Position numbers and translations under genes: made by a program. From positions 2,176,001 through 2,240,000 of the forward strand of contig OY759599.1 in NCBI GenBank assembly GCA_963662465.1: a stretch of 64,000 nucleotides of DNA. The letters are read 5' to 3'. Below, in pieces: positions 31,824 through 54,499 of this stretch (within the stretch, counting starts at the first letter, position 1; every line of letters starts with the position of its first letter). The notes below the pieces were generated by a model. That model was not told the DNA's origin. It ran no database searches and saw only the letters and a list, made by a program, of their open reading frames with translations. The stretch is from Desulfatiglandales bacterium (GTDB taxonomy: Bacteria; Desulfobacterota; DSM-4660; Desulfatiglandales; Desulfatiglandaceae).

Positions 31824-31907
31824 ATGGATTTAAACAGACCCGAATTTGGGACCTTCGACCATACCGCTGACCTGGGGCTCGTGGTAATTAGAAATTCAAA
31901 TGGTTGA
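31824..31907 (+). pseudogene. archease N-terminal remnant
   Basis: Manual translation MDLNRPEFGTFDHTADLGLVV; DHTAD is the archease signature. Confidence 0.7.
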
Positions 31908-32185
31908 CCGGATTTACGATCATGAAACAGACTTTTGGCGCCTGTTGCCACGGCAAGGGCCGCGTCCTCAGCCGAACACAGGCGCTGAAAATAGCCAAGG
32001 GCCGATCAATCCATCGCGAATTGGAGGATAAAGGCGTCTTTGTTCAATCCAGGAGCAAACGAATTCTTAAAGAGGAAATGCCGCAAGCCTACAAGAACGT
32101 ATTCCAAGTCGTTCGAGTGGTCCATGAAACCGGGCTGGCTCACAAAGTTGCCAGGTTAAGACCGTTGGGCGTTACTAAAGGTTGA
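31904..32185 (+). pseudogene. rtcB: RtcB RNA ligase C-terminal remnant
   Basis: TFGACCHGKGRVLSR...EEMPQAYKNV...KVARLRPLGVTKG. Confidence 0.85.
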
Positions 32186-38831: not shown

Positions 38832-38987
38832 GAAGCCCTGATCTCCTAAATTTTTATCCGTTTTTTTTTGCCTTTTGAAAAATTTCCTTATAGTATAAAA
38901 AAATAAATCTTTTTACAATATTCTACTACAACCTCTTTTTGCACAAAGATTGATTCGCAAAACACGAAAAATAGAGGGACCATTGAG

Positions 38988-39629
38988 ATGACCAAAATCC
39001 AAAAGATACCCAAGGCAACCATCACCCGGCTTTCCATGTACTACCGGCAACTGGAACTGCTGGAGTTTGACGGGTATCGAATGGTTTCCTCTGAGAAAAT
39101 GGCATGGTTATGCCAGATCAATCCGGCGCAAGTGAGAAAAGACCTCGGCTATTTTGGAGAATTCGGCATCAGGGGTGTGGGTTATGATGTCATTGAACTT
39201 CAAACTCAAATTAAGAAAATACTGTCCGTCAATCGAGACTGGAATCTTGGCATTGTCGGGATAGGCAACATGGGATGCGCAATTTTGCTGCACAGAAACC
39301 TGGCTCTCAGAGGCTTCAAGTGTGTCGCGGCATTTGACAATTCCCCGGACAAAATTGGAAACCCGCTTCCCGGGGGGATGAAAATACGGGATATCAAGGA
39401 ATTGAAAACAGCCATCAGGGATCTGGACATTGAAATCGGCGTGATCACCACCCCGGTTTCCGAGGCCCAGAAGGCAGCGGATCTCTTGCTGGATGGCCAT
39501 GTGAACGCTATTTTGAATTTCGCGCCCACCCGCATCAAGGTACCCGACTGCTGCCTGGTTGAAAATATCGAATTTACGGTTATCCTGGACATCCTGGCTT
39601 ACAAACTCCATCAGAAAATGGCCGCTTAA
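38988..39629 (+). CDS. rex: redox-sensing transcriptional repressor
   Basis: IPKATITRLSMYYR, QVRKDLGYFGEFGIRGVGY, GIGNMG, ILNFAP. Confidence 0.95.
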   Translation: MTKIQKIPKATITRLSMYYRQLELLEFDGYRMVSSEKMAWLCQINPAQVRKDLGYFGEFGIRGVGYDVIELQTQIKKILSVNRDWNLGIVGIGNMGCAILLHRNLALRGFKCVAAFDNSPDKIGNPLPGGMKIRDIKELKTAIRDLDIEIGVITTPVSEAQKAADLLLDGHVNAILNFAPTRIKVPDCCLVENIEFTVILDILAYKLHQKMAA

Positions 39630-39677
39630 GGCTTAGGAAATAACAATGGTTAATAAAAAAACAGGGAGGAAAAATTT

Positions 39678-40760
39678 GTGAAAAAACTAATGGTAATCAT
39701 CATCGGACTTTTTTCCGTCGCCCTCTGGGTAAACGTAGCTTTCTGCCAAAACGATGTGGGACCCAGAATGGTGGTCGAGGAACGGGAATTCGATTTTAAA
39801 GAGGTCAAAGAGGGAACAACCCTGGAACATGCCTTTATAATCCGCAACAAAGGCAATGAACCCCTTGAAATCATCAGCGTCAGACCCGGCTGAGGCTGTG
39901 CGGTGGCCAATTTTGACAAGGCCATTCCTCCGGGTGAGGAAGGAAAGATAACGCTTAAGGTCAGAACCAAAGGATATCAGGGAATGATTCGCAAGGCTGC
40001 CAGGGTCAAAACCAACGACCCAGCCAACCAAAATGTGGTGCTGGTGGTCAAAGCCATCGTCAAAACCCCCATTTATGTATCTTCCCGGTATGTTCGGTTT
40101 TCCGGCAAGGGGGATCGGGAGATCGGAAAAACCATTAAAATCCGTGGGGAACTGGATAAGCCCCTGAATCTCACGGTGGCTGATTTCACCCTTAAAGACA
40201 AGCTGAAATACACCATTGAAACCATTCTGAAGGAAAAAGAATACCAGATTCAGTTCGCATATCTACCCACCATCAAAGAAAATTTCAACGGAATCCTGAA
40301 AATCAAAACCGACTATCCGGAAATGCCGGAGATTACCATTGTGATTCATGGCCAATTTAACCAAACCCGCCCCCCTGGAAATGCCGGATTACAAAACATG
40401 AAAAAGAGGGCGCCGGCAAAGCCCCCAACCGTCATTAAGGCGCCTATTTACGTTTCTTCTCGCTATATCCGACTTTACGGGAAAAAAAATGAGGAAATCA
40501 GCAAGGTTGCGGAAGTACATGCAAAACTGGATAAGCCCTTGAATCTCACGGTGGCTGATTTCACCCTTAAAGACAAGCTGAAATACACCATTGAAACCAT
40601 GGAAAATGGGAAAAAGTACCAAATAAAATTTACGACCTTACCGGGCGTCAATCACAAGTACAATGGTATTTTGAAATTGAAAACCAATTATCCGGAGATG
40701 CCGGCAATCACCTTCGTCATTCATGGTCGATTCATGGAAAGCAAAGATAATGTCCAATAG
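39678..40760 (+). CDS. exported DUF1573-type Ig-like repeat protein, probable selenoprotein (TGA 39891-39893)
   Basis: Two in-frame ORFs joined by one TGA give VRPG-U-GCAVA; signal peptide; GGGAG RBS; downstream hairpin. Confidence 0.8.
39902..39926 (+). promoter_or_regulatory. candidate bacterial SECIS hairpin
   Basis: GTGGCC-AATTTTGACAA-GGCCAT starting about 10 nt after the in-frame TGA, G in loop. Confidence 0.55.
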
Positions 40761-41205
40761 TCCACAAAAAGTGGTTGAAATTTTTACGGATGGCGCCTGC
40801 AGCGGCAATCCGGGGCCGGGAGGGTACGGCGCCCTGCTTAAATGCGGCCCAACGACAAAAGAGATTTCGGGCTGTGAACCGGACACCACCAACAACCGTA
40901 TGGAGATGATGGCCGTCATTGAGGCCCTTCGCCGGCTCAAGCGTCCGTGCCGTATCATTCTGACAACGGATTCTCAATATGTCATGAAGGGAATGACCCA
41001 GTGGATTCATGGCTGGATCAAGAAAAACTGGATGAATTCCCAGAAAAAGCCCGTCCTGAACAAGGACCTTTGGGAGGAAATGCTGCAGTTGAGCAAGCCT
41101 CATCAGATCCAATGGAAATGGGTCAGAGGACACCAGGGACATACTGAGAATGAACGTTGCGATTATCTGGCCACAGAGGCCCTTAAAAAATGCAAACCTT
41201 TATGA
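40750..41205 (+). CDS. rnhA: ribonuclease HI
   Basis: [38 protein letters not shown]. Confidence 0.95.
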
Positions 41206-41302
41206 CAAGGGATTTGCCGCTCCCGCGAATGAAAATAACATCTACCGCTTTTAAGCTAACAGCTAACGGCTAACGGCTAACAGCTGTATTTTCATGGTAA
41301 AA
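41196..41302 (+). repeat. second copy of GCTAAnn heptamer element
   Basis: Matches 35907-36010 with one extra heptamer; contains the rnhA stop codon. Confidence 0.85.
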
Positions 41303-41325
41303 CGCATTGATACGGAGCTTCCAAG

Positions 41326-42432
41326 ATGAAATGCCCCAAATGCAACTACATCAGTTTCGATTTCAACCGGACCTGTCCGAAATGCGGGAACGATAACACA
41401 GAGGAACAGGCCCGGTTGAACCTGTCTCCCAATAAACCAAATCCACCCTTCTTTCTAGCCGCTCTTATTGGGGTACAGGATTCTCCAAATTACGAAATCT
41501 CCGCCAACGAAAATGACATTGCTTTTCCCGGGACACCCCACGAAGAGTTTGATGCACAGGAATTGTTGATTGCCCTTGACGACCTGCAAACGGATGAGTC
41601 CAAACCGGATGTTCTGGAACCGCTGGACAGCGGGGAAAATGAAATTTTATTTGAGCTGGATCCAACAGAGGACTCCCCAACCACCGAGAAGCCGTTAGAC
41701 GAAATAGAGTTTTTCAGCGCCGAAAATACACCGGAAGATCCGAATGATGAGGAATTGTTGCTGACTCTGGACGATTTCCCGGAAAATGAATCCACTTCGG
41801 ATACTTTGGCGTCAAGTCAACCCAAAGAAGAGGAAATTGCCTTTGAACTGGATGATCCATTTGAACCGGTAAACCCACCTGTCGAAAAAGGCACTCTCAA
41901 TAAATTTGACGACATCCAGACGGATGAACAAGATGTTTTCCTGGAAGAAGTTCCCGAGCCAAGCAATGAAGTGGATCTTTTCCTGGAAGAGGACGTCCCG
42001 ATCATAGAGATACGGGAAGACGAAGCAGAACTTTCCAGCGATCAGAATATGCCGGAAGAATTGGATGCTCAGGATTTATTGCTAACCTTTGATGACCTCA
42101 CGGAAGATGATGTTACAACTGATCCCCTGACGTCAAGTCAACCCAAAGAAAAGGAAATCGCCTTTGAACTGGATGATCCATTTGAACCGGAGAGCCTACC
42201 TGCCGAAAAAGACAAAGATGCCTTTGAAGAGAAGGGATTCTGGAATTCCGACGAAATAGAAAAACAAATGGCTGCCTTTGGCCTTGAAGAAACCGATGAA
42301 AAAAAAGCGGATATCGCTCAGAAAGAAACGGTTGACGAAAAAAAGAACGATGATTTTTTTCTAGAGTTGGATCTGGAACCTTTGGATCTTGAATTGCCTT
42401 TCGAAGATACGGAGAAAAATCCTCAGCCTTGA
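41326..42432 (+). CDS. zinc-ribbon protein with long acidic repetitive tail
   Basis: MKCPKCNYISFD...CPKC; repeated SSQPKExEIAFELDDPFEP. Confidence 0.8.
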   Translation: MKCPKCNYISFDFNRTCPKCGNDNTEEQARLNLSPNKPNPPFFLAALIGVQDSPNYEISANENDIAFPGTPHEEFDAQELLIALDDLQTDESKPDVLEPLDSGENEILFELDPTEDSPTTEKPLDEIEFFSAENTPEDPNDEELLLTLDDFPENESTSDTLASSQPKEEEIAFELDDPFEPVNPPVEKGTLNKFDDIQTDEQDVFLEEVPEPSNEVDLFLEEDVPIIEIREDEAELSSDQNMPEELDAQDLLLTFDDLTEDDVTTDPLTSSQPKEKEIAFELDDPFEPESLPAEKDKDAFEEKGFWNSDEIEKQMAAFGLEETDEKKADIAQKETVDEKKNDDFFLELDLEPLDLELPFEDTEKNPQP

Positions 42433-54371: not shown

Positions 54372-54499
54372 GGGGCGATCATATGGGAATGCGGTCTTTG
54401 TGTCAATCCGTGCGAGGGGGAAATAATGTTTTCATATTCTTGGGTATTTTGATAGACTTCAAAAAATGTCTTGGCTGGAGAGGCGATATAGAGGATTTT

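Follow-up and report, generated by a model that had tools for sequence, protein, structure and literature searches.

Positions 39678–40760 of the window (the whole 64,000-nt stretch of DNA analyzed here) very probably hold a single gene for an exported selenoprotein of the OS_HP2/DUF1573 family, likely a periplasmic selenol/thiol redox protein. We regard it as close to certain that the product is a genuine member of OS_HP2 decoded with selenocysteine (Sec). The protein belongs to an already described selenoprotein family, and proteins of this kind have been in print since 2007–2008. New, as modest leads, are a rex-OS_HP2-rnhA module occurring in 17 genera and the thiol-redox and sulfur-transfer neighborhoods of paralogs.

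The locus is made up of two open reading frames (ORFs). The first, of 71 aa (39678–39893, GTG start), is closed by a TGA at 39891–39893, and the second, of 285 aa, runs in the same frame from a GTG at 39903 to a TAG at 40758–40760, with the codons GGC TGT GCG lying between the TGA and this GTG. A sequence-only reading of this DNA had proposed that the two form one frame split by nothing but the TGA, and this was confirmed from the sequence. With the TGA read as Sec (U), translation of 39678–40760 gives 360 residues with the stretch ...ISVRPG-U72-G-C74-AVANFDK.... The signal peptide that had been expected on this readthrough product is supported by a hydrophobic N-terminal helix and by the ends of orthologs, the aligned orthologs having VLA, SLA or PLA before a Q at the predicted end of the signal peptide. 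The features of the gene and its surroundings are as follows.

38988–39629, + strand: rex, redox-sensing repressor (NF003993, 269.3 bits against a cut-off of 217; Pfam Put_DNA-bind_N and CoA_binding)
39664–39669, + strand: GGGAGG, ribosome-binding-like, 8 nt 5' of the GTG start, as read from the sequence
39678–40760, + strand: OS_HP2/DUF1573 selenoprotein gene, 360 codons and TAG, with TGA as predicted Sec
39678–39746, + strand: predicted signal peptide, residues 1–23 (helix 2–21 in the model, ortholog alignment; putative cleavage site)
39771–40058, + strand: DUF1573 Ig-like domain, residues 32–127 (PF07610, 2.2e-21; PF22544, 4.6e-14)
39891–39893, + strand: TGA, predicted Sec codon U72 (139 of the 146 family matches listed have TGA in the homologous column)
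39897–39899, + strand: TGT, Cys74 of the U-G-C motif, invariant across a 27-sequence alignment
39903–39925, + strand: predicted SECIS hairpin, arms 39903–39908 and 39920–39925, 11-nt loop, conserved G39915
39926–39940, + strand: possible second stem of 5 bp, over the codons of P-P-G-x-E-G (here P-P-G-G-E-G)
40056–40370, + strand: C-terminal beta-sandwich module 1, residues 127–231, from the model, without a Pfam family
40431–40745, + strand: C-terminal beta-sandwich module 2, residues 252–356, 62% identical to module 1 (blastp)
40750–41205, + strand: rnhA, RNase HI (NF001236, 233.7 bits against a cut-off of 160; Pfam RNase_H, 1e-51)

The 360-aa protein scored 122.2 bits against the NCBIfam model NF041425, "OS_HP2 family (seleno)protein", for which the cut-off is 100, and the same profile aligned to the genome DNA with 111.5 bits across one TGA inside the match, in single copy in the genome. 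DUF1573 and a HYDIN/VesB-like Ig domain were placed on residues 29–127 by Pfam, with the U-G-C motif inside DUF1573. Membership in OS_HP2/NF041425 is indicated on three counts, namely a score above the cut-off, a DUF1573 domain with UxC/UGC, and Sec/Cys alternation. The TGA had been claimed to lie at the first Cys of a C-G-C motif of DUF1573, and this agrees with the PF07610 match and with Cys homologs carrying CGC. Cys-type DUF1573 proteins (PF07610), including that of Porphyromonas gingivalis (PDB 2qsv), have the Ig-like fold but C-G-C where U-G-C is found here, with Cys instead of Sec and without a SECIS.

OS_HP2, for "Olavius symbiont's hypothetical protein 2", was described as new among selenoprotein families in a 2007 paper (section 12 and Table 2 of PMC1976440); it is entered as "OS_HP2, pfam07610, UxC" with 354 Cys homologs in a 2008 ocean-sampling paper (PMC2398784), and "DUF1573, UGC" stands in tables of reviews from 2022 and 2026 (PMC9312934, PMC13188914). 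Compared with the family as described, the protein of the window shows no difference in kind: the domain, the position of U-G-C at the same column, the Sec/Cys alternation and the hairpin behind the UGA are all the same. Specific to its subgroup are the two C-terminal modules, where most relatives have one, and the fixed site between rex and rnhA, neither of which is mentioned in the passages of this literature that deal with OS_HP2; these passages also cite no experimental Sec insertion for the family. The description of the selenoprotein as hidden in the sequence-only reading consequently holds for gene callers but not otherwise, as the family is in print and the NCBIfam model is passed.

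A search of a large public protein set with the 360-aa query returned 56 proteins. The best record (P0002) is a 285-aa protein from the source contig itself, with 100% identity and 79% coverage, and the next 37 records (P0003–P0039) are 275–288 aa long with 77–79% coverage, those that are named being called "DUF1573 domain-containing protein" or "hypothetical protein". From these 285-aa and 275–288-aa forms it follows that gene callers cut the gene at the TGA, as had been foreseen. In the set searched, near-full-length orthologs are represented only as 275–288-aa fragments without signal peptide and active site, because of which their domain architecture, localization and chemistry are misread.

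The genome (8.16 Mb, one contig of 8,161,625 nt) was checked for selA, selB, selC and selD, as the earlier reading had suggested, and the absence of Sec machinery, which it had named as counter-evidence, was not what was found. The set is complete, with selA (a match of 525 bits), selB (a SelB winged-helix domain within a 673-aa frame), selD and one tRNA-SeC(tca). The selD gene (C1:5156011–5156934, L004) has one in-frame TGA itself, which makes the organism's selenophosphate synthetase, SelD, a predicted selenoprotein as well. A genome-wide reassignment of TGA was considered and rejected: of the window's 34 long non-overlapping ORFs, 14 end in TGA, which is therefore a normal stop here.

Among 101 genomes of the host's bacterial family, 92 have a match to NF041425. 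Exactly one TGA lies inside the match in 139 of the 146 matches listed for that family, the other seven having none, and all 41 parsed Sec-type loci have the TGA as the first codon of U-G-C. A Cys codon was read directly at the TGA column in L022 (with C-G-C at the motif), L051, L094, the second copy in L095, and L106. Across the phylum, 116 of 301 genomes have a match, with TGA and Cys rows both listed. Alternation of Cys and TGA among homologs was thus seen within the host's bacterial family as well as across the phylum, and the situation in which the TGA is unique to this strain and its orthologs all carry Cys was not encountered. Contigs of two short-read runs of the organism, possibly from the assembly's own sample, cover 38900–40194 including the TGA with 0 differences. 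A close relative is represented by a contig of 252 nt from an environmental RNA library; this contig spans the TGA and keeps it, and the two differences listed for it in the gene (39809 A>G and 39890 C>T) are synonymous third positions. From two metatranscriptome runs only short pieces of a relative with 95–99% similarity were obtained, with holes.

In bacterial SECIS elements the distance from UGA to loop is 16–37 nt, and the fdhF-type SECIS of Escherichia coli is a stem-loop just 3' of the UGA, within the coding sequence, with a G in its apical loop. The hairpin that had been noted about 10 nt downstream of the TGA was confirmed at 39903–39925, where G39903–C39908 pairs with G39920–U39925 (6 bp); it starts 10 nt after the TGA and its loop begins 18 nt from the U of UGA. 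Viewed in this sequence alone the hairpin is weak (6 bp, 11-nt loop), with an A-A at a position that is paired in relatives, and the 76-nt single-sequence fold has z = 0.33, with 122 of 200 shuffles folding as well. An Rfam scan of 39800–40050 at E up to 10 gave no SECIS family, its sole match being a chance-level RsmY. Comparison nevertheless gives 41 Sec loci with a hairpin in this position. Among 17 window-like sequences, paired cells make up 79% of the stem, as against 43–56% with the partner slid, and seven pairs are changed on both sides, a figure reached by 3 of 500 shuffles; the loop G-A (39915–39916) is at least 90% conserved. In the other subgroup (20 sequences) the stem is GCCUC/GAGGC or GUCUC/GAGAC, with the register one base off and 88% of cells paired. 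The second stem at 39926–39940 is 89% paired with one pair changed on both sides, its register differs in the other subgroup, and it may merely reflect the peptide motif encoded there. The case for a SECIS is accordingly a comparative one only, since the fold energy is no better than that of shuffles: conservation and covariation at the expected site favor the predicted element, while single-sequence stability and Rfam do not. The legend to Figure 5 of the 2007 paper characterizes the element by a stem-loop immediately 3' of the UGA whose apical loop carries a conserved G (PMC1976440). The hairpin at 39903–39925 has both features, with the single-sequence z given above. Its likeness to the fdhF-type SECIS lies in its placement just behind the UGA in coding sequence and in the G of the apical loop; it differs in having no sequence similarity to it, no Rfam match and a larger loop (11 nt).

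The AlphaFold model, built from the 27-sequence alignment, has a mean pLDDT of 85.3 and consists of the N-terminal helix (2–21) followed by three beta-sandwiches, with a disordered linker (232–251) before the last. The DUF1573 domain is modeled as a beta-sandwich with pLDDT above 90 except for the block with U-G-C, which lies in a loop between strands 63–70 and 77–79 and is the only low-confidence block of this first domain. Invariant in the alignment are H51, N57, G59, L63, U72, G73, C74, G89, T97 and D114; in two further sequences (L036 and L061) H51 is replaced by R. Most relatives (232–250 aa) have one C-terminal module and same-genus orthologs have two, which in the window appear as a direct DNA repeat (40150–40357 and 40525–40732) of 77% identity. 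Despite this overall figure the modules share at least 61 nt of identical DNA (40540–40600 and about 40165–40225), where contig depth is doubled (repeat family D1), and this stretch may be a patch of recent gene conversion. A sequence search of the PDB with the window protein gave no match at E up to 1. Foldseek with the whole model returned generic tandem Ig/ASH arrays from the PDB (ciliary central-pair proteins, titin, cadherins, RTX adhesin), with the P. gingivalis protein of unknown function, 2qsv, at rank 31, and no functional clue came from these matches.

The gene had been placed right behind rex, and the NF003993 match together with the pair of Pfam domains confirmed this, the gap from the end of rex being 48 nt. 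On the other side rnhA begins, with its ATG, inside the final codons of the selenoprotein gene. No terminator-like site was found between the three genes, and one follows rnhA at 41273–41287. Co-transcription of the gene with rex and rnhA is likely, given this short gap, the stop/start overlap and the lack of a terminator-like site between them. To assess how far the arrangement extends, 83 loci of the host's bacterial family were inspected (the 30 best matches, 13 chosen by length, and 40 that ranked next). Rex upstream and rnhA downstream were found in 37 of these, from 37 different genomes and 17 genera; rex was present at one further locus cut by a contig edge, and two others had rnhA with a glycosyltransferase upstream. 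In 20 loci from the phylum's other families (tblastn, E up to 1e-5) neither rex nor rnhA was found within about 2.5 kb. From this layout and synteny we infer a coupling of the gene to Rex. Among the papers matched in full text for DUF1573 no title deals with Rex, and the passages on the family in the two reviews are table entries only.

The consensus of the Rex operator is TTGTGAA-N4-TTCACAA. With up to three mismatches of this consensus, from which the operator of the host's clade may differ, no match was found near the gene; the one match in the window, at 54447, is far from it, and 3.9 are expected by chance. Nor was a shared palindrome found in the approximately 130 nt upstream of rex; these were read in 36 loci, two of the 38 orthologous ones that match rex having no upstream DNA and being left out. 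The missing match to a Rex box is not evidence against regulation of the unit by Rex.

Just after rnhA, 41237–41297 is a short dispersed repeat with tandem GCTAACR heptamers that overlaps the terminator-like hairpin; contig depth in the organism's runs rises there from about 43 to 1200–3600, and 41206–41325 has 95 blastn-short matches in the genome. The next frame (41326–42432, + strand) encodes a 368-aa protein in which a zinc-ribbon-like CPKC...CPKC N-terminus is followed by a long, highly acidic body of repetitive sequence; the protein matched no Pfam or NCBIfam family and is kept downstream of rnhA within the genus. Elsewhere in the window, a frame of 93–97 aa (31892–32185, + strand) matches positions 341–426 of the 426 of the RtcB RNA ligase profile (6.5e-26). 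With a stop closing the frame upstream and only the last 86 profile positions matched, it has the appearance of an rtcB gene reduced to its C-terminal part.

The neighbors of paralogs point to thiol chemistry. In 11 of the 83 loci (L021, L030, L050, L052, L059, L064, L069, L074, L084, L085, and L089) OS_HP2 is in a thiol-redox or sulfur-transfer cluster beside genes for thioredoxin, DsbD_TM (CcdA), DsbC, rhodanese or MauE. Two gene orders occur. The first is thioredoxin, DsbD_TM/CcdA, OS_HP2 and DsbC, with OS_HP2 directly between the DsbD_TM/CcdA and DsbC genes in L021 and L030. The second is thioredoxins, CcdA, an SBF-type transporter, OS_HP2, rhodanese and MauE/DoxX, sometimes followed by a CDF exporter; L052, L074, L084, and L089 repeat the order of thioredoxin(s), CcdA/DsbD_TM, SBF/ACR3-type transporter, OS_HP2, rhodanese, MauE/DoxX and CDF exporter. 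ArsR and the ArsP permease are part of the cluster in L085, and rhodanese and MauE also adjoin the gene in L091, from outside the host's bacterial family. The database homolog P0057 has DUF1573 fused to DsbA/thioredoxin domains. A gene for a small protein (PF04060, "Putative Fe-S cluster") precedes OS_HP2 in L064, L069, and L089.

In a quick tree built from 106 columns of 81 domains, a branch with 98% support parts a clade of 53 rows from one of 28. The larger holds all 37 rex-linked rows, which need seven changes on the tree, and nine redox-cluster rows, these being eight of the 11 thiol-redox loci and L035, a locus with CDF and TauE neighbors. The window's gene is thus in the same major clade as eight of the 11 thiol-redox loci, and by this grouping it has close paralogs embedded in envelope thiol chemistry. 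In the smaller clade are found loci of the FG-GAP, TPR and CcdA-DsbC types together with the host family's two Cys forms (L022, L051). A subgroup of OS_HP2 proteins of approximately 340 aa always adjoins the gene of an FG-GAP repeat protein of approximately 400 aa (eight loci: L017, L019, L020, L023, and L025–L028).

The sequence-only reading had put forward a redox or metal-binding envelope protein. For the protein itself we give an even chance to a periplasmic selenol/thiol redox role with a reversible U72–C74 selenenylsulfide, a role argued from the neighbors of paralogs in other genomes, the window's own neighbors being rex and rnhA only. SelB with Sec-tRNA would bind the hairpin and Sec would be inserted at U72, after which the protein would be exported by way of its predicted signal peptide. 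In the apparently exposed loop between two Ig-like strands U72 and C74 would then alternate between selenol/thiol and selenenylsulfide, exchanging electrons with partners in the envelope. The two C-terminal beta-sandwich modules may serve as spacers or docking domains, and co-transcription with rex would tie the level of the protein to the NADH sensor.

Two known systems offer an analogy. The N-terminal (alpha) domain of DsbD is a periplasmic electron shuttle with an Ig fold, supplied with electrons by the membrane domain DsbD/CcdA. The likeness lies in a reactive chalcogen pair on an exported Ig-like domain and in the paralogs encoded between DsbD_TM/CcdA and DsbC genes; the difference is that DsbD alpha has two Cys on separate strands and the present protein U-x-C in one loop. 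None of the seven Pfam families matched at E up to 0.1 is related to DsbD, and the resemblance is one of working alike, with no relationship implied. C-G-C redox motifs are known from the shuttle disulfide of Erv2 and from CGC peptide mimics of protein disulfide isomerase. These share with U-G-C the spacing and the middle Gly of a redox-active pair, but the fold is unrelated and Sec here takes the place of the first Cys.

The main rival to the redox role, because cation-efflux, Ars and ACR3-type genes are found in the same clusters, is that U-x-C of the same selenoprotein is a binding site for soft metals or metalloids such as Zn, Cd, Cu(I), Hg or As(III), the protein being a periplasmic chaperone, buffer or sensor with no electron shuttling. 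We consider this possible, if somewhat doubtful. Cation_efflux (CDF) genes adjoin the gene in L035, L050, L069, and L089, the ArsR and ArsP genes of L085 and the SBF/ACR3-type transporters of L074, L084, and L089 fit the same pattern, H51 and D114, invariant in the 27 sequences, could add ligands, and CxC is a motif known from copper chaperones and metallothioneins. However, thiol-redox genes (thioredoxins, CcdA, rhodanese, MauE) are always present in those same clusters, H51 is R in L036 and L061, and rex, in the context of the window, is a sensor of redox and not of metal.

That U-G-C would instead be a fixed, non-catalytic structural selenenylsulfide in an Ig-domain scaffold or adhesion protein of the envelope appears improbable. 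Three tandem beta-sandwich domains, nearest solved folds that are structural Ig/ASH arrays, and 14 loci in the other clade with FG-GAP or TPR genes as neighbors would suit such a bridge. Costly Sec kept at one position is, however, typical of reactive sites, and it is so kept in 139 of the 146 matches listed; a bridge spaced by two residues in a loop stabilizes little, and the neighborhoods of paralogs are those of thiol redox. Scarcely credible is a true stop at the TGA, through nonsense mutation, sequencing error or two separate genes, for although public gene calls give a 285-aa product (P0002) for the source genome and the single-sequence hairpin is unexceptional, the NF041425 profile aligns across the TGA, the codon is conserved in the matches listed, the contigs of two runs show no difference, the changes flanking the TGA in the relative are synonymous, the Sec machinery is complete, and the 71-aa piece would amount to a signal peptide and half an Ig domain.

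Returning to the redox role, a broader and decidedly speculative proposal, which we think unlikely to hold in full, is that rex-OS_HP2-rnhA is a fixed module of the bacterial family in which Rex, as cytoplasmic NADH sensor, would set the level of a periplasmic Ig-fold Sec-x-Cys electron shuttle. This shuttle would be a selenium-based stand-in for DsbD alpha, coupling envelope thiol/selenol redox to NADH/NAD+, with duplicated paralogs recruited into CcdA/thioredoxin/rhodanese/MauE clusters.

As a discovery the finding is of small importance, and its practical value is in annotation. The linkage to rex and the clusters around paralogs yield a concrete hypothesis on the function of the family, that of an envelope selenol/thiol shuttle which would be tied to the redox state of the cell.
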